DNA from: a virus | IMG/VR virus record: IMGVR_UViG_3300029305_006221 | Location: 64,001 to 128,000 of that record | DNA length: 64,000 nt | Strand: one strand, 5' to 3' | Shown here: in pieces, positions 12,315-62,573 of the stretch | How the letters are laid out: each line of letters starts with the position of its first letter | Numbering within the stretch: the first letter of the stretch is position 1 | The notes under the pieces: model-generated | Databases searched by the model: none | What the model was told of the DNA's origin: nothing | The model's input: only the letters and a program-made list of their open reading frames with translations | Translations under genes and position numbers: made by a program

Positions 12315-12338
12315 GTTTAATTAAGGAGGACATATAGC

Positions 12339-12869: not shown

Positions 12870-12886
12870 TAAGGGAGGGAATAATA

Positions 12887-13939: not shown

Positions 13940-13959
13940 TTAATAAACTGAACTTTAAC

Positions 13960-13995: not shown

Positions 13996-14022
13996 CAAAA
14001 GGAGATAAAAGGAGATTATTAT

Positions 14023-21084: not shown

Positions 21085-24000
21085 ATGGCTAATTAGGGAA
21101 GAATTACTTTTGGCATTGGTTTTAATGTAGATTAGTCTGGTTTAAATTAGCTTAAGGCTTCTTTAGCAAGTTTATAGAATATGCAAACTAGAGATTTAGT
21201 AAATGTAGATTCTAAAGGGAAAGCATAGGCTAAATTACGTGAAATTAAAGAAATGGCTGGCCAAGTAGAAGCTGCTCTTTAGCAAAGTTTTAACCCTGCA
21301 TTAAACACCTATAATATTGATACTTTTAAAAAGAAATTAAATGAAAATGTAGGAACTTTATCTTAGGTAAAAGCAAAAATGGCAGAGGCTGGCGCTGAAG
21401 GTACAATAGCGTTTAGAAATTTAGCTACTGCAATTTCTTCAACGAAATTACCTTTAAGAGAATCTCATGATTTACTTAAGGCAATGGGCACCACCTTAAT
21501 GAACACTGTAAAATGGAGTATTGCATCAAATGCAATTAATACTGTAACAGGTTCTGTTCAAAAAGCTTGGAGCTATACAAAGTAGCTTGATGAATCATTA
21601 AATAATATAATGATAGTAACCGATAAAAGCGCGGATTCGATGGCATAGTTTGCGCGCTAGGCAAATAAAGCCGCAAAAGAGTTAGGTAAAAGCACTAGAG
21701 ATTATACGGATGCTTCTCTTATTTACTATCAATAGGGTCTTGATGATGCATAGGTAAAATCTAGAACCGAAACGACATTAAAGGCGGCAAACGTAACGGG
21801 TTAGTCTGCAGATGTTGTATCTGAATAGTTAACTGCCGTTTGGAATGGTTACAAGGTATAGGCGCAAGAAGCTGAGTTATATGTAGATAAACTTGCGGCC
21901 GTTGCTGCAACTACGGCGGCCGACCTTGAAGAACTTTCAACTGGTATGTCAAAAGTTGCTTCTGCAGCTAATACAATGGGAGTAGATATTGACCAGTTAA
22001 ATGCAATGTTAGCAACTGCTGTTTCTGTAACGCGTCAGGCGCCTGAGTCAGTTGGTACTGCATTTAAAACTGTATTTGCGCGTATTGGCGATATTGAAGC
22101 TGGCATAAGCGATGAAGCTACTCTTGGTGAGTATACGAAATAGATGCAATCAATGGGTATAAATGTCCTTGATACAAATGGCAAACTTCGTGATCAAGGA
22201 GACGTAATTGAGGAAATTGGTAATAAATGGAATCAAATGTCTCGTGAGCAACAAATTGCTCTTTCTCAGACTATGGCTGGTACCAGACAATATAATAATC
22301 TTTTAGCGCTGTTTGATAACTGGAATATGTATGAGCAAGCAATGAAAACCTCTGTAAATGCAGCTGGAACATTGCAGAAACAATAGGACACTTATATGGA
22401 ATCTATTGAAGCGCATATGGAGCAACTTAGAACTGCCGGCGAGCGCGTTTATCAAGCATTGTTAGATCCTGATAGTGCCAATGACTTACTTGATGTATTA
22501 ACTGAAATAGTTGATAAATTTGGTAGCTTTATAGAGTCTATTGGCGGCGGTGGTAATTTATTGATGTCGCTTATTCCTATTTTAACTAGAGTATTTTCAG
22601 GTTCTATTGCAACAGGCTTAACAACTTTTGTAACAAACCTTAAAAATGCAGGCCAAGAAGCAACAACATTAAAATCGGTGCTCTAGGGGATAAATGAAAT
22701 AGGATCCTTAGACAGTTTGACCGAAGCTGATAAAAAAATTAATGATTTAAGACGCACTTTGGTGCTTTTGCGACAACAAGGTGTTATAACAATAGAAGAA
22801 TTTAATTCAATGTCTGCAAGTGTTACAGAGTATGGAGATGCGATTTCAGAAATTGAAAGAAAAAAAGAAAATAGAGAAAAAACTAAAGATAGATTAGGAG
22901 TTTTAACAGATGCAGGCTTAGCAGAAAAAGGTAATCATAATATAGCTAAAGATAAAGCGAAAAGAGAAAAATATTTCGACAGAGTCTATACTTTTGGAGA
23001 TGAGTTAAGCTCCAAAGGATTATCGGAAGAAGCCATTAAATCTTCTATCGGAGATAAAAACGCAGCTCTTGCAAAGAGTGGTGCAGCAAATGCTTATAAA
23101 GAAATTAATGACGCATTGATTTCAATTAAAAATAATATAGATGATATTGATAATAAAAATAAAGAATTTACTAAGGGTATTTAGACCACTATTGCTAATT
23201 AGGAAAAATATAGTAGAACCATTATAGATTCTAAGCGATAGTTTGAGAAACTTGTGGAAAAAACAGAATCTTTAAAAACTTTTTACACTGATACGACTGA
23301 AGGAAAAAAATTTGAAAATTATGAAGCTAGAATTTCTAAATTATTATCAAAAGAACATCTTGACTCTGAAGAAATGGCGATATTGCAAAAATTGCAAAAT
23401 GAATATAGTAGTTTTATTAACAGTCATTTACAAGAAGTGTCGTCTTTAGGCAGTAAAGAGGAACTAGAATCTATTGATATTAAAATTAAAGAATTAACTG
23501 CTTCATCAAATAAGTTTAAACAGTCTATTGAAGATATAAATAAAGCTCATAGTAATCAAGAAGATTAGATTGAAAAAATTAAGTCGAAGTTTGAAGAACT
23601 TGATAAAGAAGCTAAAAAATTAGAAGATGCAAATTTACTTGGCGGAGCAAGCAGAGGAGATTTAACTAAAAGAGCTAATAGCATTAGAAATTTACTTGAT
23701 GACACTAGTAAAAGAGGAGAGCTCTTAAAAGATCCAGAAAAATTATCACATTTATATGAAGAATATGAGGCGACACTGCAAAAAGCAATAGCAGAAGGTA
23801 GAAAAGAAGTTAAAAATTTATCTACTGATATAGATAAGGGTATAACTGATGGAGTTGGAAAAGCAAAGGCTCAAGCAGAAGGTCTTGGAGAGGCTTTAAG
23901 AAATGCTCTTTCAAAAGCTTAGCTAGAGTTAAAGATAAAATAGTTTGTTAATTTAACTTCCAATATTGCAATGGCTGGTAATGCACTTCGAAATTTAATT

Positions 24001-27000
24001 AATTTAGGAGACATTTGGAATAATCAAGATTTAGAACTAGGGGAAAAAATATTTTAGACAATAACCAATGTAGGCTCCTCTTTAAGTATGCTTCTTCCTA
24101 CCATTACAATGATAACAGCTGCAATTTCTAAGAAAACTGCTGCAACTACTGCTTCAACAGGCGCTACAGCCGCTTCTGCGATAACTGATATGTTTTATGC
24201 TAAAACACAGGACGAAGTTACCGAAGAAATGACTGACTAGGCATTTTGGTTAAAATCACTAAAAAGTCTTTAGAACGATCTTAATGATGAACAGAGAAAA
24301 GCAATTGCAAACACATTGAAGGAAGCTGCGGCAAGAAAAAAGAATAATGAAGAGCTTGCTAAAGAAGCTTTGCTTAAAGATACTGAGCAAAATATAAACG
24401 ATAATAAAAAATCTTTTAATCTCTTTAAATCAAAAAAAGCTCCAACAACAGCAGCAGGTAAAGTTTTAAATGTTGGTGGAGGCGCCTTAGCGGCGGCCGC
24501 CGCAGCATATATAGGAGCAACTTTAACTTCTAAGCTTGTTACCTCTTTGTATGATTAGCAAGAAGCCAATTTTAAAGCGGCTTCAGAAGCAGCAAAATAG
24601 GCCGAGTCTAATTTAAACAAAGTAACCGAAGCCTATGACAATTTATCAAATTCACTTTCTAATATTTCTTCTTTAAAGGATTCTTTAAAGGATTTAACAG
24701 AAGGTAGTGTTGAATGGGAAAAAGCGGTTGCTGATATTAATGCTGAAACTAGGTAGCTTATTGAAACATACCCAGAAATAGCTAAAAATGGCTATTATGA
24801 AAATGGAGTATTAACCCTAGACTCAGAAAGTTAGTTAAAAGTTGAAAGAGAATTGTTAAACCAAAGATATAAAGCTCAAAACTCTAAAATAGTAGCAGAT
24901 GAGACTAAATAGGCAGCAGAAATTGCTGCAAAACAAGAAAGTCTTGCAGGCGAGCTTAATTATTTGAATGAACTTTCAGAATTGGGGACTGGGGCAACAG
25001 TAGCAATTTCTCTTGCGCTGGGTGGTATTTTTGGGTTAGCAACTGGTGGATTAGCAGTTCCAATTATTGCTGGATTAGGACTTGGAGCCTTTGGAGGAGG
25101 ATTTTCTACATACCTTGAAGAAGAAGAAGAAAATGATACAGAAGAGGCTTTAATAAAAGTAGTAAACAAATTAGCAGAGTCAGAAGAGAAAGACTTAAAT
25201 GGATATTTACAGAATAGCTCTAAGCATCTCGCAGAATTGTTAGACAAGAATGTTGAAGAGTTAACAAATGCAGAAAGAGCCTTATTGAGTAATACCAGTG
25301 AAATAAATGCTTTAGCTTAGGAGATAAGAAAAGCAAATGAGTTAAAGCTCATGCAAGATACTGAGTTTTATCGTCAAAGATATTTGTCTCAAGGATATTC
25401 TGTAGAAGATGCGGCTGCAATGGGAGGTATGACTGCATCAGCTACCGATTATGCTGCAGAAGAAGAGGCGATAAGTAAACGCGCCGAATAGATAATGAAA
25501 AAGAAGGGGAATAATAAAGATCTCATTATCTAGTGGGCAGAATCTTAGGGAATTACTTTAACCAAGGACGATATTAAAGAAACAGGCGGAGCTAATTTTA
25601 AATATAAAAACGCTAATGGCGAATGGGTATCAATGAGCTATGAAACAATAGCTCGCCAATAGGCCACCACAGAAGTAAAAAATACTGCCTCTAGTGAAGT
25701 AAATGCATTAGAATACAAGAAATAGCTTAACGCAATTGTAAAAGGTATTTCTTTAGAAGGAACAGATATTTTAAAATCACTTTTGGCTTCTAATAAAGAA
25801 ATTTTAGCTGAAAATATTGAAGAGTTTAATAATGCCACTATTGATGAACTACAAAAGATATGGGAAAGGGCTGATGAATTAAATTTATCAAGTGAGGCAA
25901 AAAAAGCGCTTGGAAAAACTATTGAGGAAGCTAAAATATATTAGGAAAATATTGCCACAGTAGAAAACTGGGGTGAAAGCACTTATGATGCTATTAATAA
26001 GATTTTCAATGATAATGGCGAATGGTCTAACATTTGGAATAATTTTAGTGCCTCTTAGATTAGAGCTTTTGGTAAAGCATTAACTAAAATCGAATTATTC
26101 GGTGGAAAACAAGCAGCTAAAGCAGCAGAGTCTATATTTAGTAAGATGACTGATGCAGATGCAGAATCTGTGCTTACTAATATGAACTGGGAATCAGAGA
26201 CTTTACTTGCAGACTTTTCTGCAGAAATGGAAAAAGTTGGTAAAGTTTTAGATTATACTAGTGGAGAAGGTTTTGCGATTGCGTATGCTTTATCTCGTGC
26301 TAATGATTAGATGGTGATTTCCAAGGAAGCGTGGAAAGAAACTGCAAGCATTCTTGAGTCATTAAATGAAGAGCAAGCATCGTTAGATATGGATAATTAT
26401 TAGCATCTTATTGAGATGTATGGAACAGCTATCTCTAAGTATTTTACTCAAATGGAAGATGGCACTTATAGATTGATAACTGCCTCTACTGATTTTGCTA
26501 AGACTATTGATGACTTGGAAGAAAGAAAAATAGAAGCAGCTATTAAGACTGAAATTGAGTCTATTAGGACTTTTGACGAAGAGTATGATAAAATTTTAAA
26601 TGATTTTGTTTTTAATACGATACCTGATTCCGACGATGGAATTTCTGCTTCTAAAATTAAAACGCTTGATGAAATAATTAAGGTAAAAGGATATGAAAAT
26701 GCTAGTTTAACAGGAAAAGATCTTAATAAAACTGAAGGTTTTTCTGAATCACAAACTCATGCGGTGTTATAGGGAGCACTTACTCTTGATGAATATAAAG
26801 GATTAAATAAAGTAATAGATTTTGTTTATACTAAAACATATGGCGATAACTGGCGAGATAATGGTGATGCTTGGAATGATATGACGGAATAGGTTGGCGG
26901 AAAGAATTTTATCATTGATTTAGACCCCGCTGGAGATTCAACATCATTTACTTATGATGAATTACAATAGGAATTTACAGAAGAAGAAATAAAAAAATGG

Positions 27001-30000
27001 TTTAAAAATACGACATCATCTGGAGGATATTATGCAAATAATGTTGAAGCTAACTATGCACAGCTTACTAACGCAATCGCTAATCAAGCAGCCAAAGAAC
27101 GAAATGAAGCTCTTGGAGTCGATAATAAATATGTAAAAAAATCTGATATTGCTCAATGGTTATATTAGTTATCTGCTATTGGCGCGTTAAATAGTGAGCT
27201 TTATACCAAATATTCACAAGAATTAGACGGACTTCCCCCAGAGTCGGAATCATTAAAAGTGCCAGAAGATGGTGGAGATTGCGCTTTTGTTGCTGATGTT
27301 AAAAAAGACCTTGAATCAAGTGATGTTAAACCAGATACTGAAAAATTAAACGAATATATTGATCAGTGGATTAGAAGCGCAGATTCTCAAGAAGAGTTTG
27401 ATGAACGAGTAGCAGAAGCTCAAGGACTAGCTTCAACAGTTTTAGGAGACGAGTTTGATGAAAAAGCCTTTAAAGATACGGTAAAAGAATTACAAATTTC
27501 ATTAGGAGTAAAACTCGAAACTAAGGCGCTTGAAAACTTCAAAACTGAGATGGATCAAATCTCTAATTTAATTTCTAATTTAGATAGTAAACTATCACAC
27601 TTATCATCTGTGGCAGATTCCTTGTATGGACAAGATAGACTAGATTATATTGAGGAATAGAATAAGGTTATTCAACAATAGATAAAGCTTCTTGAACGTC
27701 AAGCTAAGATTGAGTAGCTAGAACTCAATAGGCAAAGAACGTTTACCCCTGGAGAAAACAACACTACTTATGAGGCTGCGTTAAAAGATCTTGCTCGATT
27801 AGCAGGCTATGCAAATGCTGATATTATGAGTGAAGCTGAGCTTTGGAACGCACTCGGTATTACAGATGTAACAACTCAAGAAGGTGCTTAGAATTCTCTT
27901 TTAAATATAAGAGAAATGTTTGCTCAGCGTGGAATAGCTGCTGATGAAAATCTTAATAAGTTATACCTTGCAGCGATTGGTAATCTAGAAACTATTTTGG
28001 AGCCAGTTACTTCTGGAAAAACAAAGTATGCTATAGATGAAAAGAAAGCTCAAGAGTTAGCTAATAATCTTGTTAGTTTTGAACATAAAATTGAATTTAC
28101 TTTAGATGAAGGTGAATTAAAAAGAGAGTTTGAGGCACTAAAACGAGAAGTATTTATTGATGAAGAAGATTTTTCAGAAATAACTAAATCTTATATTACA
28201 GATTATCAAACCGCAATTAGTGATCTTACAACTATTGAAGATGCTCTTAAAGAAATTGATAGTTTAAACATTTCTGCAGAAGCAAAGCTTGAGAAAAGAA
28301 AAGAATTAACTTCTCAATACGGAGAAAAGTTAAAAGAGATTTAGTAGATTGAAGAATCTATTGATCAATAGAGACTTGCAGCTTTAAATAAAATTTCTGA
28401 GGGATATGAAAAACAAATTTCTTATCTTGAAGAAATTAATGGTCTTTTAGATACTCAAAGAAGCATGATAGAGCTTATTTATGGCGAAGATGCGTATGAG
28501 ATGTTAAATTCTTATTATAGTTCTTCTCTTGATAATGCATTAGCTATTCAAGAAAGCACTCAATAGAGATTTGCAGCAGCTGCTTCAAACTATAGCAGAA
28601 TTAACGATACTACAATGAGTGACGAAGAACGCGAAGCTATTATTGAAGAATATACTGCAGCAGGACAGGCAAGCGCAGAAGCGATGTATTCGGTAATGGA
28701 AGCGCGCCGTGATAAATATCTGAATGATACAGAGATTGCTATAAAGAATTTTAATAAGAGTGTTTATGGTAGTTTAGATACAGAGCTATTTACCAGTGAA
28801 TGGGATTGGACTAAATCTCAAATGGATAAATACTATGATTCTGTATAGAGCTTGTTCGAAAAAGATAAACTTGCTGTTCAATTTGATACTGCGGCTAATG
28901 AAGCTACTTCACTTCGTGCACAAGAGCAGATTAATAAACTTAAGAGAGAAGAATTGGCGCAACTTGAAGAAATTGAGAAATTAAGTGAGTATGATGTGCA
29001 ACATGCACAAAAGAAGCTTGATATCCTTTAGGCCGAAATTGCGCTTCGTGAAGCTCAAGAGAATAAAACTCAAATGCGCTTAATGAGGGGCGCAGATGGC
29101 TCTTATAGTTATCAATATGTTGCTGATTAGGCGGCAATTGTTGAAGCTTAGAATAAACTAACAGAAGCTCAAGATGCTTTATATAATATGGAACTAGATG
29201 AATACACTTCTTCTATTGATGAATTTTAGGGCGCAATGTAGGATTTAGCGGATGTAATTCGCAAATTCGGAGAAGATGGTATTTACACCACAGAAGAATT
29301 AGCATTGATTGAGAAGCGTAAAAAAGAAATTTAGAATTTAGCAGAGAGAAGCATAAGAATTAGAACCAATGTTTTTGAATCTGCTGAGTTAGCGGCTTCA
29401 ACTTTTGGTAAAGATCTTTCTGAGCTGACCCAAGGAACTGTTCTTTAGATGACTAAAGATATCGATGCTATTATTAATGAGGTAGCAAAAAATGGTATTG
29501 ATAATAGTTATCAAAGTTTAATGGATACAATGCTTACTATTTCTAATAAATATTTAGATAAATAGAAAACTGGAGCAGAAGAATTGGCCACTGTAATTGG
29601 TTCTGCTGATCCAAGTTCTGGATTAATCGGCTCTTATTAGACATTATCAGAAAAATAGGATGCGGTTATTAAACAATATTAGACTGAATATTCAGAGGTA
29701 TCTATTCTTGCTGGACAATATGATATCCTTAAAGCTTCTCTTGAGCGAGTTAGGGATATGTATATTGCAATTGCAAACGCAAGAAAATTAAGCAATAAAG
29801 AAGAGGAAGAAGAGATTTCTGGACCTGGTCCTGACAATACTAGAACTGGTGGACTACGAAAAACTAATAAAACAAGTAGTGAGGTTGCTAGTTTATTTAA
29901 TCAAGAAGTTTATTTGTATTCAGAAAGAAGCCGATTCGATGAAGAGGGAAATAGAGTAGCAAGCTGGAGAACAGGAAATATTCATACCTATAATAGTTCT

Positions 30001-30588
30001 GGTGAATTAGATATTATTACTGTTTCTGATCATACTGGTAAAGATATGAAGAACACTAAATATACGGTTATAAGTTCAGATATATGGACAGATGCAGAAG
30101 GTTGGGGATATGTGCAAGTGCGAGATAAAGATGGAGAAATTTTTTATCTTCCAATTGAATTTTTAAAAAATGAGAATAAGAATTCAGAGAACGGCCATTG
30201 GGCAGTATTAAATTCTGGATTATTTGATGGTCTAGAAAAATATGATACTGGTGGATACACTGGTGAATGGGGCACAGATGGTCGTATGGCAATGCTTCAT
30301 GAAAAGGAATTGGTTCTTAATAAAAAAGATACTGAGAATTTCTTAGACGCACTTTCAATTCTTCGTGAGCTTAACCTTTCAATGATGGCGCAAATCGGCC
30401 GCTTTGGAATGCCATTTAGCAATTCACAAAATTCTATCTTATAGCAATTAGCTTCTCAACCAATTGAGCAAAATGTTACAATTCAAGCAGAGTTCCCGAA
30501 TGCGACAGACAAAGATGAGATTAAAGAGGCGTTTAATGACCTTATTAATCTAGCTACTTAGTATGTGCATTAGGATGATAAATTTTAA
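21085..30588 (+). CDS. tail tape measure protein, 3167 aa with dozens of TAG codons read as sense
   Basis: AAGGAGG RBS, then ATG 21085. Thirteen ORF-track fragments from 21379 to 29758, all in frame 1, are joined only by TAG. No in-frame TAA or TGA until TAA 30586-30588 across the inter-fragment gaps I checked by hand (23568-24316, 24558-24964, 25320-26416). TP901-family core motif IGNKWNQMSREQQIALSQTMAGTRQYNNLLALFDNW at about 22200. Long Ala/Gly-rich and coiled-coil regions. Confidence 0.8.
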
Positions 30589-41794: not shown

Positions 41795-43693
41795 ATGGCA
41801 TTTGCTGATAATATTCTTAATGTAAGACTTCAACTTAAGTATGACTCTCTTGAAAATTGGGCAAGAGAAAATCCCCTTCTTAAAGCCGGTGAGGTTGCGA
41901 TTGCATATCTTCCTCCTAAGGGCAATGGAGAAGCTCCTGCTGCTACTTCTGAAGCAGTATTAATGAAGGTTGGTCCTGGTAACTTTAACAGTCTTCCTTT
42001 CACAAGCGCTCTTGCAGCTGATGTTTATGGATGGGCTAAGGAGAACGAACTTAAGTTCTCTAAAGCAGGCACAGGTAATGTTGTTTCTGGCATCGAATGG
42101 GACGCTACTCTTAATGGAAACAAGGGTGGTATTAAATTTACGACTGCTTCTGTTGCAACCTCTGAAGGATTAGAAGAAGTTCAAAATGATATCGCTGCAA
42201 TTGAAAAAGATATTTCTGATAATCGCGCAGCTTGGGCAAAGGATGATAATACAACTTATACTTTTGCTAAATCTGCAGATGGCAAGGGAATTACAATTAC
42301 TCCTTCTGAAGGTAATGGTTCTACAATTTCTTTTGCTTTCTTAACGCAAGCAGAAATTGAAGCTCTTAATTATCTTGTAAAAGCAGATATTACAACCGGT
42401 AGTGCTAATGGTACAATCGCTGTTGAAGGTGCTGATGTTGCAGTTAAGGGTCTCCAGGACGCTGCTTATACCACAGTATCTGCGCTTAATGCAACAGCTA
42501 AGGGATATGCTGATGCAGTTGAAGCTAAGATTCCTACCGAACTTGGCGTTATGTCTGTTGCTGAAGGTAATGATACAATCACTATTGGTGGTACAGCTGC
42601 TAATCCCACTATTGTGGTAACAGCGAATAAGTTTGATGCATACGGTGCAGCAGCGGCAGTTCAAACTGGTGTTGAAAATGGAACAGTTAAAGCTAAAGTT
42701 GCAGAAACGGCAGATAAAGTTGCCAACTCTTTAACTGTAGGTAGTAAAACTTATAATGGTTCTGAAGCAATTTCAATTACTGCAGCAGACCTTGGCTTAT
42801 CCAATGCTCTTCACTTTGTTGGCACATCTTATCCTTCAAACCCTGTCGCAGGTGATGTAGTTCTTGATGGTAATAAGGAATATGTTTATGATGGCTCTAA
42901 GTGGATTGAACTTGGAGATGAAAGTAGTCATGCTTTGAATACCATCACTATCACTGGAACAGATGGTCTTGAAGGCGGAGGTAATCTTACTGAAAATAGA
43001 ACTTTAAAAATTGCGGATAGCGGTGTAACTACTGTTAAGATTGCAAATGATGCAGTAACCGCTGATAAACTCGCCGATGCTATTAATACAGATATCGCCA
43101 AAGGTGTAACTGCTCATGGCTGGGGTAACCATGCCAATGCAGGTTATGCTAAGACTGCTGATCTTGGTGATCTTGCAACTCTTGATACAATTACTTCTGA
43201 AAAAGTAACTGATTTTGAAAATGCCGTCAACAACACTAACATAGGCGGAACTAATGAGGGTGTAACTGTTGCTAGCGGCCTTAACAATGCTCTTGACAGA
43301 GTTACTACTCTTGAAAGCAACAAGGTTGATAAGACAACTACTGTAAACGGTAAGGCACTTTCTGAGAGCATAAATATTTATGCAGAAAATATTCATGTTG
43401 AGTCTGATTCAGTTATGGATAGAGGCGTTACAGTTTATGACTCTCTTGAGGCAATTGCTAAAACAACGATTAATGGTGAAACAATTCTTGAAAACTTTAG
43501 TGCTGGTGATTATGCTACATCTAGACAGTTTGTTCTTAATGGTGAAACTCTTAAGATGTCTGGAACAGATACAACAACTCTTAATGCGGCAATTACTGCT
43601 CGTCAGACAGAGGCTCAGGTTAATGCTCTTATCGAGGCAGCACTTGGCGCAATTACAACAATTAACTGTGGTTCTTCTACAGAGGTTATATAA
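41795..43693 (+). CDS. tail fibre protein with a HylP-type N-terminal domain, 632 aa with no TAG
   Basis: Intact ORF. N-terminus MAFADNILNVRLQLKYDSLENWARENPLLKAGEVAIAY. Confidence 0.6.
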   Translation: MAFADNILNVRLQLKYDSLENWARENPLLKAGEVAIAYLPPKGNGEAPAATSEAVLMKVGPGNFNSLPFTSALAADVYGWAKENELKFSKAGTGNVVSGIEWDATLNGNKGGIKFTTASVATSEGLEEVQNDIAAIEKDISDNRAAWAKDDNTTYTFAKSADGKGITITPSEGNGSTISFAFLTQAEIEALNYLVKADITTGSANGTIAVEGADVAVKGLQDAAYTTVSALNATAKGYADAVEAKIPTELGVMSVAEGNDTITIGGTAANPTIVVTANKFDAYGAAAAVQTGVENGTVKAKVAETADKVANSLTVGSKTYNGSEAISITAADLGLSNALHFVGTSYPSNPVAGDVVLDGNKEYVYDGSKWIELGDESSHALNTITITGTDGLEGGGNLTENRTLKIADSGVTTVKIANDAVTADKLADAINTDIAKGVTAHGWGNHANAGYAKTADLGDLATLDTITSEKVTDFENAVNNTNIGGTNEGVTVASGLNNALDRVTTLESNKVDKTTTVNGKALSESINIYAENIHVESDSVMDRGVTVYDSLEAIAKTTINGETILENFSAGDYATSRQFVLNGETLKMSGTDTTTLNAAITARQTEAQVNALIEAALGAITTINCGSSTEVI

Positions 43694-43706
43694 TTAAATA
43701 CACATA

Positions 43707-43736
43707 AGGGTGGGTAATTCTACCCACCCTCTTTTA
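43707..43736 (+). terminator. rho-independent terminator
   Basis: AGGGTGGGTA-attc-TACCCACCCT then CTTTT. Confidence 0.7.
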
Positions 43737-43800
43737 AAAGCCACTTGAGTTTGAAAGTGATAACTCAAGAATTTAATACTTGAAAAGGAGATAGTATATT

Positions 43801-44589
43801 ATGGCTACAACTGAAGCATTAAAATTTCGTATTGTGCATAAGCACGATACCGAAGAGAATTGGCTTAAAGCCACAAACTTTATCCCTAAGCAGGGAGAAA
43901 TAATTATTTATGATATTGACGCGAATTACAATTATGAGCGTTTTAAAATAGGTGATGGCACTAGTAATGTAAATGCATTGCCTTTTGCTAATAATGGTTC
44001 TAGTGAAACTACAGAAATATATGGAGACGCTCCAAATCTTCCTCTTTTAGATGAGCAAACTTATGACCAAGCTTGTATTGTTCCATTAAAAATTAGGGTT
44101 AAAAACAATACTATTAATTATAGCGGTACTGGAAATCTTCCTTATTACCAGTATTTTGATAGAACTTTAGAAGTACCCGCATACACTATGGAAGGAACCT
44201 TTTACTCAGAGACCTTTACCGTTAGTAATTATTCTGGAGGAATGGAAGATACGACTACTTATACTGTTAGTATAACTTTTAATAGAGGAAATTGGACGAT
44301 TAATAATGATTCTAATGGTATAATTACCTTTTTAATGGATGAAGAATTAACAACGGTAGGCGCAGGTAGGGCGCTAAGAGAAACATCCGATAGATTTAGT
44401 GTTACGACAGCATGGGATGGATCAAATGATGTTCCAGCTATTAAGGTAGGTAATACAGTTCTTACCGAAACAAAACTTAGTCAATTAATTGCGTACATTG
44501 ATGGTTTAGCAAGCGGTGATCCTGCAGTAGTTGAACCTATTGCGCAGAACTATCTTGACACGACAGTAGCAGAGGAGGCGACTTGGTAA
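43801..44589 (+). CDS. tail fibre or receptor-binding protein with a HylP-type N-terminal domain, 262 aa with no TAG
   Basis: Intact ORF. N-terminus MATTEALKFRIVHKHDTEENWLKATNFIPKQGEIIIYDID. Confidence 0.55.
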   Translation: MATTEALKFRIVHKHDTEENWLKATNFIPKQGEIIIYDIDANYNYERFKIGDGTSNVNALPFANNGSSETTEIYGDAPNLPLLDEQTYDQACIVPLKIRVKNNTINYSGTGNLPYYQYFDRTLEVPAYTMEGTFYSETFTVSNYSGGMEDTTTYTVSITFNRGNWTINNDSNGIITFLMDEELTTVGAGRALRETSDRFSVTTAWDGSNDVPAIKVGNTVLTETKLSQLIAYIDGLASGDPAVVEPIAQNYLDTTVAEEATW

Positions 44590-45689
44590 TGGGATTTAAT
44601 GAAAAAATGACTACATTAGCAGATGAAGTGAGAACGCTAAGTGGCGCTACTGAGGAAAAGAGTCTTGATGATTTAATATCTGATACTACTGCGGCTAATA
44701 GTGAGGTTGATGCGCAGACCGAGTTAATTGAACAGATTATGACTGCGCTTGATGGTAAGGCTGGCGGCTCAGGAGGAACAGTTCTTCCTACTCTTGATAA
44801 TCCTGCAAGTGCTACAGACATTCTTAGTGGAAAAGAAGCTATTGATGGTGAAGGTAATAAGATTACTGGTTCAATTGCTACTAAAACATCAAGTGATTTA
44901 ACTGCAAGCGGTTCTACGGTTACGGTTCCCGCAGGATATTATGCAAGTAACGCAAGTAAGTCTGTAGCTACTGTTACTCAAGCAACTCCTACAGTGTCGG
45001 TTAGCGCCAGTGGTTTAATTACAGCAAGTGCCACACAGAGCGCGGGATATGTAGCTTCAGGAACTAAGAGTGGAACTAAACAATTGACCACTAAAACAGC
45101 GACCACTTATACTCCTACTACTTCGAATCAAACAATATCAAGTGGAATTTATTTAACTGGCACTCAGACTATTAAAGGCGATGCAAATCTTAAAGCTGAA
45201 AATATTGCTTCTGGAGTTAGCATTTTTGGAGTAGCTGGAACTCATAGCGGAAGTGAAAATCTTGATACTGAATTAACTGAACAAGAAAGTTTAATTTCAG
45301 AGTTAAGCACTATCTTAGATAGTAAAGCAAGCGGAGGCTCTGGTGGAGGGAGCATAGAGACTTGCACTGTAACTATAAGCAGCAATTCATCATTTAATGG
45401 TATTTGGATTATATTTTATAATTCTTTAGAAAATAATTCCATTATAGGAAAAAAAAGTGACTTCCTTCTTAATTCTACATCTACAATAACTGTTAATGCG
45501 CTACAAGGCTCTGTAATTACCATAGTTGCTTTCGACATAGGGGTTTTTAACGACTATGGTATGAGTAATTGTAGTGTTTCCAATGGAGGCAATTTGTTAC
45601 ATGTGATGCAAGATTCTGTAAATATTGTAAATGTCGGTCTTGTAATCCAACTACCAAATGAAAACGATTGTACTATAACCTGTAGTTAA
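44583..45689 (+). CDS. receptor-binding-protein paralogue A, 368 aa with no TAG. Contains GGSGG linkers
   Basis: Intact ORF. The module ATQATPTVSVSASGLITASATQSAGYVASGTKSGTKQL...TIKGDANL is paralogous to the 46096..47151 gene. Confidence 0.5.
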   Translation: MVMGFNEKMTTLADEVRTLSGATEEKSLDDLISDTTAANSEVDAQTELIEQIMTALDGKAGGSGGTVLPTLDNPASATDILSGKEAIDGEGNKITGSIATKTSSDLTASGSTVTVPAGYYASNASKSVATVTQATPTVSVSASGLITASATQSAGYVASGTKSGTKQLTTKTATTYTPTTSNQTISSGIYLTGTQTIKGDANLKAENIASGVSIFGVAGTHSGSENLDTELTEQESLISELSTILDSKASGGSGGGSIETCTVTISSNSSFNGIWIIFYNSLENNSIIGKKSDFLLNSTSTITVNALQGSVITIVAFDIGVFNDYGMSNCSVSNGGNLLHVMQDSVNIVNVGLVIQLPNENDCTITCS

Positions 45690-45707
45690 TAAGGAGGTAA
45701 ATAAATA

Positions 45708-46076
45708 ATGTCAAATAAAACAAGATTACAAACAAATAACACCAACCTCCAAGCACTTATAGATAAGGCAAACGCACTTCCTGATGCTGGCGGAGGTTCT
45801 GGCGGAGGAGGAGACTTGGAAACTTGTACTCTTACATTATCCAGTATGGGCGTACCCACGGGCGACGAAATAGTTTATTATATAGATGACACTTTAACGC
45901 TTCAACAATCTAGTTTTCCCGCCTTTAGACAGAGTAAATCTGTAATCGTTATGAAAAATAGTATAATTTTTGTTGAATATGCGTCTGAGATCTCTGGAAG
46001 CATCGCTTCAATTGGTACTGGTACAAGTCATCAAGGATTTTTTATTTCGGGTGATGCAACTTTATCGAAAGGATAA
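45708..46076 (+). CDS. receptor-binding-protein paralogue B (short), 122 aa with no TAG
   Basis: N-terminus MSNKTRLQTNNTNLQALIDKANALPDAGGGSGGGG resembles the N-terminus of 46096..47151. Confidence 0.5.
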   Translation: MSNKTRLQTNNTNLQALIDKANALPDAGGGSGGGGDLETCTLTLSSMGVPTGDEIVYYIDDTLTLQQSSFPAFRQSKSVIVMKNSIIFVEYASEISGSIASIGTGTSHQGFFISGDATLSKG

Positions 46077-46095
46077 TGTAAAGGGGGATTAACAA

Positions 46096-47151
46096 ATGTC
46101 AAATTATAATACGCAATTACAAGCAAACAATTCCTCTTTGGAGGAAATTATAACACAGCTTAATGAGTTGCCCGATGTGGGAGGTACCGACCCTATTCTT
46201 CAAGATAAAACAGTAACTCCTTCAACGAGTCAGCAAACGGTAACTGCAGATAGCGGATATGATGGATTAGATACGGTAACTGTTAATGCAATGCCTACGG
46301 CTACACAGGCAACACCGAGTATTACTGTTAATTCAAGTGGACTGATTACTGCAACTGCAACTCAGACTGCTGGTTATGTGGCGGCAGGTACTAAATCTGC
46401 AACTAAACAGTTAGCATTTCAAGCTGCGCAAACCATTATCCCTGGTACAACTAATCAGACAATTGCATCTGGACAGTATTTAACTGGGGTGCAAACTATT
46501 AAAGGCGATGCTAATTTAGTAGCGAGCAATATCGTAAGTGGCAAGAGTATTTTTGGAGTGGTTGGTACTGCTAATAGTGGAGGTGGAAGTAGTGGCGGAG
46601 ATACAAGTGCAGAAGATGGACTAGTAACTAGAACTTTGACGACTTATACAAATGATAGAGTAACAACTATTGGAAATTATGCGTTTTATTCTTGCTCAAG
46701 CCTTACAAGCGTAAGTTTTCCACAATGTACAACTATTGGAGACTATGCGTTTCGATATTGCTCAAGCCTTACAACTGTAAATTTTCCAGCGGTTACAACT
46801 ATTGGTGCTTCTGCCTTTGTAGGTTGTTTAAAACTTGCGGGAGTGAGCTTTCCAGCAGTTACAGCTATTAACCTCGCTGCATTCCAAAACTGTTCAAACC
46901 TTACGACTGTAAGTTTTCCAAAAATTACAAATATTAGTTCTTACGCATTCCTACGTTGTTCAAAACTTGCTTCTATTTATCTTGCTGCATCTACAGTATG
47001 TTTTTTAGAAGGCTCAGACGCTTTTTCACAAACTAGTATCTGGTCAAACAAAGGCTCAATCTTCGTTCCGGCCTCCTTACTTGCTTCTTATAAAGCTGCA
47101 ACTAACTGGGTTTTCTTTTCAAATAGAATTTTTTCATATAACTTCACATAA
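46096..47151 (+). CDS. receptor-binding-protein paralogue C with a C-terminal BspA-type leucine-rich repeat domain, 351 aa with no TAG
   Basis: Intact ORF. Five or more tandem LRR units of the type TIG(N/D)YAF..CS.LT.V.FP. Shared module with 44583..45689. Confidence 0.55.
   Translation: MSNYNTQLQANNSSLEEIITQLNELPDVGGTDPILQDKTVTPSTSQQTVTADSGYDGLDTVTVNAMPTATQATPSITVNSSGLITATATQTAGYVAAGTKSATKQLAFQAAQTIIPGTTNQTIASGQYLTGVQTIKGDANLVASNIVSGKSIFGVVGTANSGGGSSGGDTSAEDGLVTRTLTTYTNDRVTTIGNYAFYSCSSLTSVSFPQCTTIGDYAFRYCSSLTTVNFPAVTTIGASAFVGCLKLAGVSFPAVTAINLAAFQNCSNLTTVSFPKITNISSYAFLRCSKLASIYLAASTVCFLEGSDAFSQTSIWSNKGSIFVPASLLASYKAATNWVFFSNRIFSYNFT
46680..46960 (+). repeat. tandem ~69-nt coding repeats encoding the BspA-like LRR units
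   Basis: Reiterated ...tgctcaagccttacaa(g/c)(c/t)gtaa(g/a)ttttcca.. units. Confidence 0.6.
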
Positions 47152-47183
47152 TATTTAAAAGAGATAAAAGGAGATAAAAGGAA

Positions 47184-48164
47184 ATGAAATTACAAATTTT
47201 AGTACCTCAGTATAAAGAAACGGAAGATATTATTAAACCATTACTTGATAGTATTGAGGTTCAACAAAATGTAAACCTAAAAGAAGATGTTGGTGTCATT
47301 ATAGTAAATGATGGCACTGATGTCCATCTATCAGAAGACTTCTTTAAGAGATATTCTTTCCCAATTGAGTATCATCTCAATGAACATAAAGGTGTTTCTG
47401 CAACTCGTAATGCTTGTCTTGATAAAGCAACTGCAGATTATGTAATGTTCTGTGATGCAGATGATATGTTCTACAATGCTTGCGGCTTATACATCATCTT
47501 CCGTGAAATAGAGAATGGTGGCTTTGATAGTTTAGTATCTGCATTCATTGAAGAGTCTCATATTCCAGATACTAAAGAACCGCTTTATATCAATCACGAT
47601 ATGGATTCTACTTTTGTGCATGGAAAAGTGCATCGTAGACAATACCTTATTGATAATAATATTCGTTGGAATGATAAGTTGACGATTCACGAGGATAGTT
47701 ATTTTAATTGTCTATGTCAGAGACTTGCAAAAGAGTTGAAGTATTCTCAGACTTCATTCTATTTGTGGCGTTGGCGCGATGCTTCGGTTTGCCGCCATGA
47801 TCCAAAGTATATTTTAAAAACCTATAACAATATGCTTGATAGTAATGATGCTCTTGTAACTCAATTCTTAAATCGCAAGAGAAAAGAGGATGCTCAATTC
47901 TATGTAGTAGGCATGATTTATGATGCATATTTCACAATGAATAAAGACGAGTGGCTAAATCAAGAGAATAAAAATTATCGTTATGCAACGGAGAGACGCT
48001 TTAAGGAGTATTGGCTAAAGTATAAAAAGTTGCATGATGAAATTCCTCAAGATATAAAAGCTCAGATTATTATGGGAATTAAGAATCGGATGTATGCTGA
48101 AGGTATGGTACTTGAAACGCTTACTTTTAACGAGTGGATTAAGCAAGTTGAAGCAATGGTGTAA
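47184..48164 (+). CDS. family-2 (GT-A fold) glycosyltransferase, 326 aa with no TAG
   Basis: Motifs VGVIIVNDGTD, CDADD (DxD) and ATRNACL. AAAGGAG RBS. Confidence 0.7.
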   Translation: MKLQILVPQYKETEDIIKPLLDSIEVQQNVNLKEDVGVIIVNDGTDVHLSEDFFKRYSFPIEYHLNEHKGVSATRNACLDKATADYVMFCDADDMFYNACGLYIIFREIENGGFDSLVSAFIEESHIPDTKEPLYINHDMDSTFVHGKVHRRQYLIDNNIRWNDKLTIHEDSYFNCLCQRLAKELKYSQTSFYLWRWRDASVCRHDPKYILKTYNNMLDSNDALVTQFLNRKRKEDAQFYVVGMIYDAYFTMNKDEWLNQENKNYRYATERRFKEYWLKYKKLHDEIPQDIKAQIIMGIKNRMYAEGMVLETLTFNEWIKQVEAMV

Positions 48165-56498: not shown

Positions 56499-57008
56499 TT
56501 ACCATTCCAAAGCTGCGGTATAATCTTTTTCTTTTTTAGGATTAAGATAGGCATGGCCTATGCATACGGCATCTGCTATATCATCATTGGTTAAAGATAG
56601 ATTATATGTTTTATTTGCGAAATCAATATCTTTTTGCTTTTTCTATTCTCGTTTAGAGCTGCGTCCATCTTCTATGCCACATACTGAGCGCCAAGAGCTA
56701 GGATAAATCATTTCAATCTATACCTCTGGATGTTTATCGTGCATTTCAATATGAATTAATGCCTATAAATACATTAATGCACGAAATGTATTTGTGTTTT
56801 TACTATGATCTGGAATAACTTCTTCCATTACAATCTAATTAATTCCTAGCTAATCTACGACAGCTAGAATATTGTCCACCATTTTATGTATTCTTTTATA
56901 TAGATCTGTAGATGAAGAGGTAATACAAGCCTATCCAATTAATTCTTTATCTTTAAAAATTGCAATTCCTGTTGCTTTAGTTGAAGCATCTAATGCCAAT
57001 AAGTACAT
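56499..57008 (-). CDS. RuvC-like Holliday-junction resolvase, 169 aa with 6 TAG read as sense. Absent from the ORF track
   Basis: GGAGGTG RBS, then ATG at 57008. Reads MYLLALDASTKATGIAIFKDKELIG(TAG)ACITSS... The LALDASTKATGIAIF segment resembles the RuvC catalytic N-terminal motif. No TAA or TGA until 56501-56499. Confidence 0.65.
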
Positions 57009-57050: not shown

Positions 57051-57087
57051 AAAAAATCAAAAAGAGCGAGATTTAATCTCGCTCTTT
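57051..57087 (-). terminator. rho-independent palindromic terminator after dut
   Basis: AAAGAGCGAGAT-tta-ATCTCGCTCTTT then TTGATTTTTT on the minus strand. Confidence 0.7.
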
Positions 57088-58577: not shown

Positions 58578-58606
58578 ATTATAACTTAATTTTTTATAAA
58601 ATTCAA
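58578..58606 (-). promoter_or_regulatory. sigma-70 near-consensus promoter (TTGAAT-17-TATAAT) on the minus strand
   Basis: Minus strand reads agaTTGAATtttataaaaaattaagtTATAATtat. Confidence 0.6.
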
Positions 58607-58797
58607 TCTTCTACTTTAATATATAAGCCACAGTTACATATCGTTCCTTTTGGCGCTTCACGAAATTCTTTACACATACATAAAGTATCTTGATTTCTAA
58701 AAGGCTCCAATACACAAGGGCAATGACCTTGAGATGCACGAATTGATGCGCGTATTTCCTGCGCAAGTTCTTCGCTTGCATATTTTTGAATTTTCAT
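58603..58797 (-). CDS. small triple-CxC protein (CPC...CMC...CNC), 64 aa. Resembles the ferredoxin-thioredoxin reductase catalytic subunit
   Basis: Reads ...QGHCPCVLEPFRNQDTLCMCKEFREAPKGTICNCGLY. The FTR catalytic chain has CPC/CPC/CHC at similar spacing. Confidence 0.35.
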   Translation of the reverse strand: MKIQKYASEELAQEIRASIRASQGHCPCVLEPFRNQDTLCMCKEFREAPKGTICNCGLYIKVED

Positions 58798-59279
58798 TAG
58801 CTAATCCTTTCTGCATATTGATTTGGACTAGCAAGTTTTACTCCAAGTATATCATCAAAGTGAGATTCCATATCTGGAATATAGCGTCCAAATTTTACAA
58901 TAATATTTGAAAAATGTTTTAATTGATTTAATTGATCTTCAATCTCATCATCATAATATCCTGTGTAAATAACAACATCATCTTCTATTAAATAACATTC
59001 TCTAAAAACAAAGAGAAAGTCATATAAGTCTTCAAAGGTATCAAAAGGCTCCAATCCTTGAAATACTATTGCATGTGTAAACGGAGTCTTTTGATATAGC
59101 TCAATAATAGAGTCTATTGAATAATCAAGAGTTGGCATATTTGCCAATGTACTATTTTGACACACTGGCATGCCGCATTCTCGATCACATTTAAAACCTT
59201 TGCAATAAGGAGTTTCTATTGTTAAAGAAGGAATTTTATAATTAACGAAATCTTCTGTTATAATTCCTTTGACTTTCAT
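58797..59279 (-). CDS. nrdG: anaerobic ribonucleotide reductase activating protein (small radical-SAM NrdG type), 160 aa
   Basis: Cys cluster YCKGFKCDRECGMPVC. Overlaps the nrdD stop. Typical nrdD-nrdG arrangement. Confidence 0.65.
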   Translation of the reverse strand: MKVKGIITEDFVNYKIPSLTIETPYCKGFKCDRECGMPVCQNSTLANMPTLDYSIDSIIELYQKTPFTHAIVFQGLEPFDTFEDLYDFLFVFRECYLIEDDVVIYTGYYDDEIEDQLNQLKHFSNIIVKFGRYIPDMESHFDDILGVKLASPNQYAERIS

Positions 59280-62200
59280 TTTTTATTTACTGGCTCCCAT
59301 TTTCTCATTTTATATTCATTTGTGCGCTCTTTTGACCAAGTTTTAATCGGTGTATAAAAGCCTACAATTCTTGTATATTCGGTTTCAACTGGACGACCAC
59401 AAACGGGGCATTCGTGACCATAAAACGCATGATTATTATCGCAAGCTTGGATTTTAGTATTAAAAGCAAAATATGTTACTCCAGCATCAGAAATATAGTT
59501 AACCATTTCCCAAGCTTTATCAAAATTGTCAAATGGAGCATCAATATTGGCGTGAAGAATTGAACCTCCATTGCAGTAGCCATCAAACTCCGCGGCAATT
59601 CTAACACGTTCCGCAAGAGTAGTTTGAATACCAAGAGGAATAAATTGATTGCCATATAAAGGAAGATCAAAGATATCAGAATCTGGATAGAAGAATTTAT
59701 CTTTACGCATTAGTTTGGCGGCGGCTGACTCTCCAGGGATCTGCTCTGTGTTAATATGATAGTCGGCACTCATATCTTCAATAAACTGATCAGCAACCTC
59801 ACGCATCGTTTGGAAAATTCTCTGACCAAGCGAAGACGCTTCTTCTGTATAGTATACATTTCCAAAATCATCTGTGCGAGTATAGCCAAAGCGCTTCATT
59901 GTTTCATAAACGCCAATAAAGCCAATAGTGTTATAGAGATGTTCAAAATCTACAAGCCCCATAGAGAAATTGGGGAGAAGTCCTTTTTCAACATTACGAC
60001 GAATAATATTTCTAACACAATGAAGAGCCTGAAGATTAAGTAAAGTGCGCTTTCTTAATTCCATTAGATATTCAAATTCACTATTCGTATCAAGCGCCAG
60101 GCGCGCAAGATTAATAGTAGATACTTTTACAGAACCAACTTTAAGCGCAGTACCTCCGATACTATTAAAATAACCCAGATCCTTAATATCGCTCTTTAAA
60201 CGGCAACAGTTGGAAAGTGAAGTCACAGAGTCATCAATAAACAAGTTACTATCTGACCAACGCATGTTATGCTTTACGGCCCAGCGCGCAAATTCCTCAT
60301 CTTGGAACTCTCCATCTTGTTTTAGCAAAGAGATTGAAAGCACTGGGAAAGTAAACATATTATGAGATCTAATTTCTGCAACTTCTTCCATGTACCATTT
60401 TTGAAACTCAATAATATCCTCTTCATAGTCAATCATAAAGCTGCCATCGGGAAATTCGCTACCGCCAAATAATGCTTCATAATAGGGGCGATCAAATACA
60501 CTTGTGTTAGTAAAAGCGCTTTGCGAACCATCACGAACATAAGGCTGATTTACGGCGTAGACAAAACGCTGAAAGTTCTGGCGCGCATATTTTTCAGCAT
60601 TGCCACTTGAAGCTAAGCCAAGGTAATCAGACTCAACGTCTTTATGCCAAAAATACCACATATAAGGAATAAGGTTAGGCAAACCGACGGCGCCTGATGA
60701 ACGATTAGATGCATAACTAATATATTCTTTAACGAAGTCTACAAAAGTTGTTAAATGTTTTGCAGGTTCGGGATTAAATGGAGCTCCTATAAAATAAAGT
60801 CCTTTTTCGGCTAAATCTTTTAGATCATAAGCAAAACAGTTATGAGATAGAATATTATTACAAATAAAATGACCTGTTTCTGTTGTTAAGTCATATACCT
60901 CAGGGCATTCATCAATATACTCTGAGTTATCAATAATTGAAACCCATCCATAGTTGTATTCATATTGTTTATTTTTAAAATTGCCTTTTCGAGTTAAAGG
61001 CGTATATTTTTCTTGAATTTTAACGCTTCCAATGTTTAAAAAATATTCCTCATTTGTAAGAGTAAAGCCGATACCGAACATTGGTAGCTTTTGTTCAAAG
61101 CTTCCAATTCTATTATATCTAAATGGTGTTCTATCTCCTACAAAGATTCCTTTTGAGTGCAAATACATGCTTAACTGGCGACAAAGAACTTCTGAAGCAA
61201 TACGGATATGACAATGTCTATTCTTATATCCATCAATAGTACCATCTCCATCAATCATTCCTGCAATAACCCCATCCATAAAATCTGATGGTAATTGCAT
61301 AAAATAAGAAGGCAAACATTTATTAACAGAAGTTTGTTTATTGAATAAAGAAATTAACCATTTTTGGAATTCACTGTTGTGCAGATAAAATTTTCTATCT
61401 CCACTTTCTGCAAAAGGAATTTCATGAGTATTTAAAATTTGTCTCATTTTCTCTGCTTGAATAGAATTTAATTTTTGTGCTATAACAAATTGTCTATTAT
61501 TTATAACATTGCCTTCAGATAAGGCCATGCCAGTGACCCATCCTAAATCTTTTAATTGATTTTGTTTAAAAGGCAATTCGCAATTGAATGAGCAAGAGGG
61601 TTGAATGGTAAAGACACGATATTCATCATTTACATCTTTTGCAGGAATGTCGCCACAATCTGTAATAATAGGATGGTCTTCAGTTACAATTTGCGATAAA
61701 CCATTTGCTAACTTAATAAAACGCATAGACTTATTATTTGTGTGTTTAACTGCGCGAGTAACCTTAGTCCAACATTTTTCTCCAGTTTCTTCATTAATAT
61801 CAAGTACCTCAATATTTTTTGGAAATAATGCTTTTTGCTCAATAGATACATCATAACGCTCTTCTGCTTCGGTATCCATTGCAAGAATATTGTCATATAA
61901 CTCTTTTAAAGCAAAAGTATATTCACGGTGTATTCTATCTCTTACTGTTACAAGCTCTTCACCTTTATAACAGTAGTGTTTAAAAGTGCTAGTATCAGCA
62001 TCATGCATGTAAAGCTGTCCTACCCATTCAGATTTTAACCATTCATTGGCTGTTTTAAATCCAAACTCTTTTTGCATTTCATAATGAATTTTATTATATG
62101 CCAATAATTTTCTATGTGGTTTTGGCATTTCATTAAGAAGTGTTACTATATCTTTTTTACTGACGTTACTATTGCCATCAATACTCGCATCCGCAACTAC

Positions 62201-62350
62201 TTTGGTATCAATAAAATTATCAATAAAATCAACATAGCTCAATTGATTATCGTCAAAGCCATTGAGTCTAGCAATATCTGTTCCATATTCAGCCTAAAGC
62301 TTATTATAGGCTGTGGTAAAATTCTTTTTTAGTCTAACATTAATGTCCAT
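59276..62350 (-). CDS. nrdD: anaerobic ribonucleoside-triphosphate reductase with an intein, 1024 aa from ATG 62350. One in-frame TAG at codon 19. The ORF track starts at TTG 62242
   Basis: Extein motifs LYMHDADTSTFKHY / CFAYDLKDL, and a C-terminal Zn ribbon and glycyl-radical region (CPVCG, RIVGFYTP). Upstream of TTG 62242 the frame stays open through TAG 62296-62294 to ATG 62350. That ATG overlaps the nrdH stop (ATGGACATTAATG). Encoded N-terminus MDINVRLKKNFTTAYNKL(TAG)AEYGTDIARLNGFDDNQ. Confidence 0.85.
60839..61972 (-). mobile_element. intein (378 aa) with a LAGLIDADG homing-endonuclease domain, inserted in nrdD
   Basis: N-terminal Cys (CYKGEELVTV), block B TEDHPIIT, LAGLIDADG-like motifs LGWVTGMALSEGNV and GVIAGMIDGDGTIDG, C-terminal ILSHN followed by +1 Cys. 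The extein junction HY|CFAYDL matches the conserved NrdD N-terminal region. Confidence 0.7.
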
Positions 62351-62573
62351 TTGGGTGCTCCTTTATCCAGTTATTTATCCATTTAATAGCGTTTGGTCCA
62401 ACAAAGGCTCCAACTTCTGTAACTAAAACAGGAGCTCCTTGATATCCAAGTGCTATAATAGCATCTATATCCTCAATATGAGTATATTGAATTCCTGCTG
62501 CGTCCATCTTCATTTTAAGAACTTTGCATTGAGGACACCCAGGCTTTGAGTAGAAAGTAAATTTCATTGTCAT
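62340..62573 (-). CDS. nrdH: NrdH-like glutaredoxin, 77 aa
   Basis: CPQC redox motif at the N-terminus. Adjacent to nrdD. Confidence 0.65.
   Translation of the reverse strand: MTMKFTFYSKPGCPQCKVLKMKMDAAGIQYTHIEDIDAIIALGYQGAPVLVTEVGAFVGPNAIKWINNWIKEHPNGH

Follow-up and report, generated by a model that had tools for sequence, protein, structure and literature searches.

A probable glutamine-encoding amber codon within the mis-called N-terminus of a phage nrdD gene

The 64,000-nucleotide stretch of viral DNA analysed here in its entirety (positions 64,001 to 128,000 of IMG/VR record IMGVR_UViG_3300029305_006221, hereafter 'the window') carries on its minus strand a series of genes that runs from the C-terminal end of DNA polymerase III alpha through a guanylate kinase-like gene, nrdH, nrdD, nrdG and several small open reading frames (ORFs) to a dUTPase. 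The nrdD gene of that series, which encodes a class III anaerobic ribonucleotide reductase, is the subject of this report: under the standard genetic code it is called from a TTG codon, and the same frame extends upstream through a single TAG to an ATG that overlaps the end of nrdH. Comparison with homologues indicates that the TAG is codon 19 of the gene and that, with high probability, it is translated, most likely as glutamine.

On the minus strand the ATG, TAG and TTG codons lie in one frame, at the positions where a first-pass annotation, made from the sequence alone, had placed them (Table 1). Translation from the ATG yields MDINVRLKKNFTTAYNKL-TAG-AEYGTDIARLNGFDDNQ-L(TTG)SYVDF... and remains open to a TGA at 59278-59276, a span of 1024 codons containing that one TAG only. 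The nrdH gene ends with a TAA at 62342-62340, such that the two genes overlap by 11 nucleotides and the nrdD ATG is situated 8 nucleotides upstream of the nrdH stop codon; an identical 11-nucleotide overlap is found in the related locus L083 (nrdH at 9787-10011, nrdD from 10001). The overlap described in the first-pass annotation is thus real, and only its depiction as a 'TAATG' junction has to be abandoned, since the ATG of that junction (62340-62338) is in a different frame from nrdD. Because the genes overlap in this manner, they are probably translationally coupled. A Shine-Dalgarno-like motif precedes the nrdD ATG, and most relatives display a GGAG-type motif at the equivalent position.

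Several comparisons support the upstream peptide as the real N-terminus of NrdD. The 36 codons that precede the TTG align without gaps, from residue 1, to the NrdD protein of Clostridium phage c-st (CST076), with MNIEITLNKGFETKLEELRAKYGEDM in c-st facing MDINVRLKKNFTTAYNKL*AEYGTDI in the window; a tblastn search of a phage collection likewise matched the c-st protein from the first residue of the query, and the annotated c-st start coincides with the ATG. The Thermotoga maritima enzyme (PDB 4COI) aligns from residue 5 to residue 5 and onward into the C-terminal zinc-ribbon region (query residues 5-639 to chain residues 5-642, E 2.2e-148). Among the 120 closest database homologues (77-94% identity), 118 start at the equivalent methionine, upstream of the TTG-equivalent position at which they might instead have begun, and those 118 share the N-terminal consensus M[EDNQK][IV]N..L.KNF..YNKLQ. 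Since the 36 codons are homologous to so many NrdD N-termini, the extended frame is an observation beyond chance, and the earlier impression that it reads as genuine coding sequence was borne out; the extension is kept in homologues, and the TAG falls opposite a near-invariant glutamine. In addition, codons 2-36 differ mainly at synonymous positions among the closer relatives that carry the TAG (the window, L002, L085 and L086), with 15 synonymous and one nonsynonymous differing codons between L002 and L085; that pattern, which comparisons with the more distant L108 lack, is by its codon changes the signature of a peptide translated and constrained on both sides of the TAG.

Table 1. Features of the nrdD region of the window, with the basis on which each was assigned
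Feature	Position	Strand	Basis
Complete nrdD ORF, class III anaerobic ribonucleotide reductase, 1024 codons including intein, plus TGA	59276..62350	-	Translation; Pfam; 4COI
nrdD start codon ATG, supported as the true start	62348..62350	-	c-st annotation; 118/120 homologues; 4COI alignment
In-frame TAG, nrdD codon 19, sense, most likely Gln	62294..62296	-	Alignment column; codon counts
TTG, start in the standard-code ORF track, read here as Leu37	62240..62242	-	No Shine-Dalgarno motif; Leu in relatives
Shine-Dalgarno-like AAGGAG	62358..62363	-	7 nt upstream of nrdD ATG, inside nrdH 3' end
Intein, 378 residues (aa 127-504), Cys1 to His-Asn, then Cys+1	60839..61972	-	Alignment with intein-less 645-aa homologues
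nrdH-like glutaredoxin gene	62340..62573	-	ORF list; Pfam Glutaredoxin E 2.2e-05
nrdG-like activase gene, 160-aa Cys-rich	58797..59279	-	ATG overlaps nrdD TGA (ATGA); weak Pfam Fer4_12
Terminator-like hairpin and T run, just after dUTPase	57061..57087	-	12-bp stem then TTGATTTTTT
RuvC-like/DUF3882 gene (weak Pfam)	56499..57008	-	Six in-frame TAGs, no CAG, one CAA

To judge from its coding content, the window derives from a phage in which TAG has been reassigned from stop to sense, almost certainly as glutamine (genetic code 15). With TAG treated as a sense codon, ORFs of at least 150 codons cover 60.1 kb of DNA instead of 32.8 kb, among them two of 3168 and 1657 codons with 69 and 38 TAGs respectively, and the called genes of the window harbor 220 in-frame TAGs. 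In TAG-rich genes TAG is used 190 times, CAG 25 times and CAA 193 times, as against 59 CAG and 110 CAA codons in TAG-free genes. TAG thus seems to stand in specifically for the CAG glutamine codon, which leaves two codon 'dialects' in the window.

At codon 19 itself, 80 IMG/VR loci examined at the DNA level contain CAA in 49 cases, CAG in 23 and TAG in one, and the corresponding column of 108 unique nrdD sequences contains glutamine in 100, leucine in three and TAG in five. Glutamine therefore occupies the site in 100 of the 103 sequences without TAG (and codon 36 in 106 of 106), and among the 118 database homologues that start at the equivalent methionine the residue is glutamine in 116 and leucine in two. 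Beyond the window, a TAG at codon 19 is present in four independent assemblies (L002, L085, L086/L087 and L108), and it would most likely have been derived from CAG by a single C-to-T change. Because the protein database mixes standard-code and code-15 translations, residue-level conclusions at recoded sites require DNA; it is partly translated with TAG as glutamine, a 'Q' in it may hide a TAG, and the conclusions drawn here use DNA-level counts. The 116 database glutamines were accordingly rejected as proof that close relatives lack the TAG: one such entry, P0014, has no standard-code translation from its own DNA, and that DNA has TAG at both codon 19 and codon 36. The same collection also holds N-truncated standard-code NrdD proteins that start at residue 52 or 75, side by side with code-15 translations (P0014, P0098 and P0117). 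An exact look-up of the window NrdD, in both start versions, gave no match in the protein collection.

The UAG of the window would be decoded by a phage-encoded amber suppressor tRNA(CUA) located outside of it. The contig of the closest IMG/VR relative (IMGVR_UViG_3300029305_004519, loci L229 and L002), in which nrdD codon 19 is TAG, contains a tRNA with anticodon CTA (L229:500-575; Rfam tRNA, 48.2 bits) on the same strand as nrdD and approximately 29.5 kb upstream of it, and similar tRNA(CUA) genes occur in L231 and L233. The gene in L229 stands alone (region 440-620) between an upstream promoter-like TTGATT-17-TATAAT and a downstream terminator hairpin, and at gathering score the tRNA family was the only Rfam match in L229:1-1500, with no ribozyme family beside the tRNA. 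The tRNA displays a mismatched 1:72 pair, G73, G2-C71 and G3-C70, features that we take, in view of the identity elements of glutaminyl-tRNA synthetase, to fit a tRNA-Gln.

Without enough of this tRNA, host release factor 1 would end NrdD translation after 18 residues, and the output of NrdD would track the availability of the suppressor. The suggestion of the first-pass annotation that full-length NrdD depends on amber suppression is supported, because the TAG lies within the real extension and the genome uses TAG as sense. In amber suppression by tRNA-Gln(CUA), such as that of E. coli supE, the output of a protein with an early UAG is set by how much suppressor tRNA is present relative to release factor 1. 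The present arrangement would differ from supE and from conditional amber phage mutants in that the phage itself provides the suppressor and has amber codons fixed in its wild-type genome.

Several observations weigh against this reading. No tRNA gene is found in the 64-kb window. (Before the tRNA of L229 was located farther along its contig, approximately 80 loci around nrdD had likewise yielded no suppressor tRNA, as had the 10 kb flanking each end of the window in relatives.) At codons 21, 25, 195 and 278, the nrdD TAGs of relatives align mostly to glutamate or aspartate; by alignment, these would fit a tolerated Glu-to-Gln change and are no proof of glutamine. The inserted residue is predicted from alignments, codon usage and the literature. 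Against a necessary regulatory role, finally, stands the syntenic locus L083 (92% NrdD identity): although its late genes contain as many as 13 in-frame TAGs, its nrdD is wholly free of TAG and reads CAG at codon 19, so that the TAG is not required.

The first-pass annotation had further seen in this codon a possible recoding-dependent temporal switch, which is plausible but unproven. A broader form of the idea, which we hold tentatively and consider rather doubtful, is that amber codons within the first 50 or so codons of selected early or middle genes (nrdD codons 19, 21, 25, 36 and 49, and codons 10 and 13 of a Sak4-like ATPase) are kept by selection as translational gates or attenuators. 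Under such gating, ribosomes would abort after a short peptide until phage tRNA(CUA) had accumulated, and enzyme output would be tied to the code switch, apart from the well-known recoding of late genes.

The distribution of TAG among nrdD genes bears on this question. A TAG is present in 33 of the 108 unique sequences; 30 of those 33 have one in codons 1-50, with 16 having TAG only there and three only elsewhere. When sequences are grouped at 90% amino-acid identity, 14 of 49 clusters have an nrdD TAG, in 11 of which it occupies codon 19, 21, 25, 36 or 49. Sites at the 5' end have more TAG carriers than downstream sites (one-sided Mann-Whitney P 0.0018), and parsimony on a neighbour-joining tree places 17 state changes at the five 5' sites versus 15 at 13 downstream sites, mostly singletons. 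Within the close clade, TAG is confined to codons 19 and 36, which among the conserved glutamine codons tabulated lie nearest the 5' end; some 18 other glutamine sites alternate between CAA and CAG and are never TAG. Binomial P values for 5' placement lie between 0.0003 and 0.03 according to the null used, and by sites alone (approximately 5 of 17 sites in the 5' region, against an expected fraction of 0.17, by our own arithmetic) the excess is weak. Because the cut-off was set post hoc and the lineages cannot count as independent, the 5' bias is treated as suggestive. It suggests either 5'-proximal gating or tolerance, and the recurrence of TAG at codons 19-49 in several lineages keeps a gating or attenuating role plausible. 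No such bias holds for the genes of the window at large: the mean relative position of TAG is 0.49 versus 0.51 for glutamine codons (P 0.46), and on the late strand the TAGs of genes that contain few of them fall mid-gene, at codons 275, 398, 463 and 885.

The alternative that survives best, with about an even chance of being correct, holds that TAG19 has no regulatory role: it would be a neutral synonymous CAG-to-TAG change, with UAG read as glutamine whenever nrdD is expressed. Consistent with this explanation, codon 19 is polymorphic in close relatives (TAG, CAG or CAA) and one TAG-recoded relative lacks an nrdD TAG altogether; the suppressor tRNA of a relative, having its own promoter-like site and terminator hairpin, could be made early; and in some lineages other genes of the early module (guanylate kinase-like, dUTPase and RuvC-like) carry TAGs along their whole length, even as core replication proteins of relatives never do. 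Neutrality has more difficulty with the restriction of close-clade TAGs to codons 19 and 36, with the 11 of 14 TAG-bearing clusters that have TAG at one of the five 5' codons, and with the higher number of carriers at 5' sites. These counter-points bear on pure neutrality, and not on a version in which purifying selection leaves amber codons where an early unsuppressed stop is cheapest; the usual enrichment of rare, A/T-rich codons at gene starts could also contribute to the bias. A selected gate and a tolerated, low-cost 5' amber codon both fit the data.

In relatives, the Sak4-like ATPase (L229:13694-14728 and L230; Walker A GDAKTGKTT), which has a Shine-Dalgarno motif before its ATG, carries TAGs only at codons 10 and 13 of 344, of which TAG10 aligns to glutamine and TAG13 to glutamine or lysine; in this second early gene, amber codons are thus confined to the 5' end. 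Two other candidates were set aside. The 5' TAGs of the early ORF at L229:17259-18713 are an artefact of a first-ATG start, the real ATG being at 17604, with a Shine-Dalgarno motif, and those apparent at L223:9407-11200 are probably the same artefact.

Far less probable, and indeed very unlikely, is the reading in which translation does terminate at the TAG and NrdD synthesis begins at TTG 62242, without the 36 N-terminal residues, an alternative that the first-pass annotation had itself put forward. TTG is an allowed bacterial start codon, and this one is the first start codon in frame after the TAG. It is preceded by no Shine-Dalgarno-like motif, and its position is that of a leucine codon conserved in relatives, among which there is no conserved downstream start. 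The codon is TTA, TTA, CTC and CTA in the other TAG19 carriers, and TTA in L084 (with TAG at codon 36); translation therefore cannot start there in those genomes, and the next start called in them is Met75, as in the standard-code call of one TAG19 carrier, P0117. The 36 upstream codons, moreover, belong to the conserved NrdD N-terminus, and among the closer TAG carriers purifying selection acts on them. That the start at TTG 62242 is an artefact of standard-code ORF calling is thus strongly supported.

Equally improbable is that TAG19 represents a nonsense mutation in a decaying nrdD or an assembly or sequencing error, a reading for which it can be said that it is the only TAG of its operon within the window. 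The same TAG is found in at least four independent assemblies from different samples; the other 1005 codons are open, with the CC motif, zinc-ribbon cysteines and RIVGF kept and an end-to-end match to 4COI; and some 220 other in-frame TAGs lie in clearly functional genes of the genome. Site-specific recoding at this codon, whether as programmed readthrough or as pyrrolysine insertion through a local RNA signal, is the least probable explanation of all: ARAGORN does call the tRNA(CUA) of relatives 'tRNA-Pyl', from the anticodon only, as against which the 181 nucleotides around the TAG have no unusual RNA structure (z -0.43), the approximately 220 TAGs across the window amount to genome-wide reassignment, the aligned residue is glutamine, and no pyl genes appeared among those genes of the window and loci that were scanned with Pfam or PHROGs or had precomputed Pfam matches, in which no search was aimed at them.

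The translated protein has the composition of a complete class III reductase. It matches Pfam NRDD (PF13597, E 4.9e-86) and, in its alignment to 4COI, retains SNCCRL, the C..H..C..C element (CDNNHAFYGHECPVCG) and TRIVGFY, of which we take SNCCRL to be the catalytic cysteine pair, C..H..C..C the zinc-ribbon and RIVGF the glycyl-radical site. The NrdD proteins of c-st (CST076) and T. maritima (4COI/4U3E) are colinear with it from the N-terminus to the C-terminal zinc-ribbon region; residue 19, UAG in the window, is arginine in the former and leucine in the latter. The intein within the window gene begins CYKGEE and ends ILSHN before the following cysteine, contains a GMIDGDG motif that is presumably of LAGLIDADG type, and is only weakly matched by Pfam Intein_splicing (31.8 bits, under the 35.8 cut-off). 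It occurs at the identical site in L086/L087 (protein P0014), and most relatives (643-653 aa) are without it; in the window the insertion follows residue 126, whereas that of c-st is at the catalytic CC site or loop.

The operon in which nrdD resides probably ends at the hairpin that follows dUTPase (57087-57061), and within the minus-strand unit up to that hairpin the TAG of nrdD codon 19 is the only one. Terminator-like sites in general are in excess (9 versus 3.2 expected), and a promoter scan was uninformative (35 sites versus 35.9 expected). The statement in the first-pass annotation that all other early or replication genes are free of TAG holds for this operon and fails at the very next gene, RuvC-like and with six TAGs, which is flanked by terminator-like hairpins (57087-57061 and 56496-56460), has a TTGATT-17-TATAAT site upstream, and so appears to be a transcription unit of its own. 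An nrdG-like gene adjoins nrdD in relatives as well (146 ORF matches), and in the window it lies immediately downstream of nrdD; c-st resembles the window in having a glutaredoxin gene nearby, two genes upstream of nrdD.

Some further observations concern the neighbourhood and the remainder of the window. Just downstream of nrdG is a 64-aa Cys-rich ORF (58603-58797, minus strand) with TAG at codon 14 in 20 loci of relatives, and in c-st the annotation of a small ORF directly downstream of nrdD notes a weak resemblance to ferredoxin-thioredoxin reductase. In L082:3796-8883 a GIY-YIG endonuclease ORF (6528-7370) interrupts the DNA polymerase III alpha gene, which in the near-identical L083:4963-8883 is a single gene of 1306 aa; either a mobile intron or a free-standing homing endonuclease has probably been inserted. 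On the plus strand, TAG-free blocks at 10908-14598, 17733-18635 and 41795-48164 lie among TAG-rich genes, which extends the recoding mosaic to that strand as well; they include a PHROG 'virion structural protein', a weak PHROG tail assembly match, an LRR_5 protein and a glycosyltransferase, with several structural genes in the first two blocks.

By its published description, the phage type that the window matches is Phassvirus, a group of gut phages of approximately 135 kb (phAss-1, BK046881_ctckW2 and BK025033_ct6IQ4) to which the window is likened here through that description, and the assignment is accordingly one of likeness. The phage phAss-1 (135,976 bp) is reported with a tape-measure protein of 3149 aa, and the group with two to three tRNA-Sup-CTA genes predicted to carry glutamine, TAG in 37-41 ORFs (inside many structural and some DNA-metabolism genes) and a probable Clostridia host (PMC10607447). 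The window has a counterpart to the tape-measure ORF of approximately 3150 aa in its ORF of 3168 codons with 69 TAGs (21085-30588, plus strand), presumably the tape-measure protein, since its length is close to that reported for phAss-1; translation through this number of TAGs implies that suppression is nearly complete late in infection. A Clostridia-type host, as in Phassvirus, is consistent with the Shine-Dalgarno sites of the window and with a Clostridium phage NrdD as its nearest match in the phage collection. The same paper lists a TAG in nrdG of one Phassvirus member and, by term searches, mentions neither nrdD nor the position of TAG within genes (PMC10607447). The nearest fetched contigs are syntenic with the window at approximately 75% DNA identity, a scan of metagenomes gave relatives of at most 81% identity among the matches listed, and a megablast search of the region against the phage collection, which excludes Phassvirus genomes, gave no match.

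Gut phages that read TAG as glutamine have been described as having early genes in the standard code, structural and lysis genes rich in TAG, and a phage suppressor tRNA (bioRxiv 10.1101/2021.08.26.457843; PMC9523058). Borges et al. proposed that recoding times translation, and noted that replication genes vary in whether they use the alternative code (bioRxiv 10.1101/2021.08.26.457843); Peters et al. demonstrated glutamine insertion at UAG for two crAss-like phages (PMC9523058). The window differs from both systems in that its TAG belongs to a gene of nucleotide metabolism, within an operon that has no other, and from that of Borges et al. in that the comparative data favour codons 19-49, term searches of that paper having found no discussion of position within genes. 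Temporal control of nrdD would be in line with their general proposal.

The reassignment of TAG to glutamine with a phage suppressor tRNA is known already, and the phage type has been described; the nrdD gene of the window is a further instance, together with a corrected mis-called start. The only potentially new element is that amber codons sit close to the 5' end in nrdD and, in relatives, in at least one further early gene. For annotation, the consequences are practical: standard-code calling shortens NrdD by 36 residues here and by 74 in one relative, TAG-reassigned phages need to be annotated with code 15, and database glutamines may conceal TAG codons. For the biology of these phages, reassigned stop codons reach beyond the late genes, and TAG19, with its natural variation among TAG, CAG and CAA in relatives, provides a concrete example for the idea that recoding tunes translation. 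Should selection prove to underlie the 5' bias, the model of regulation by recoding would gain a positional rule.

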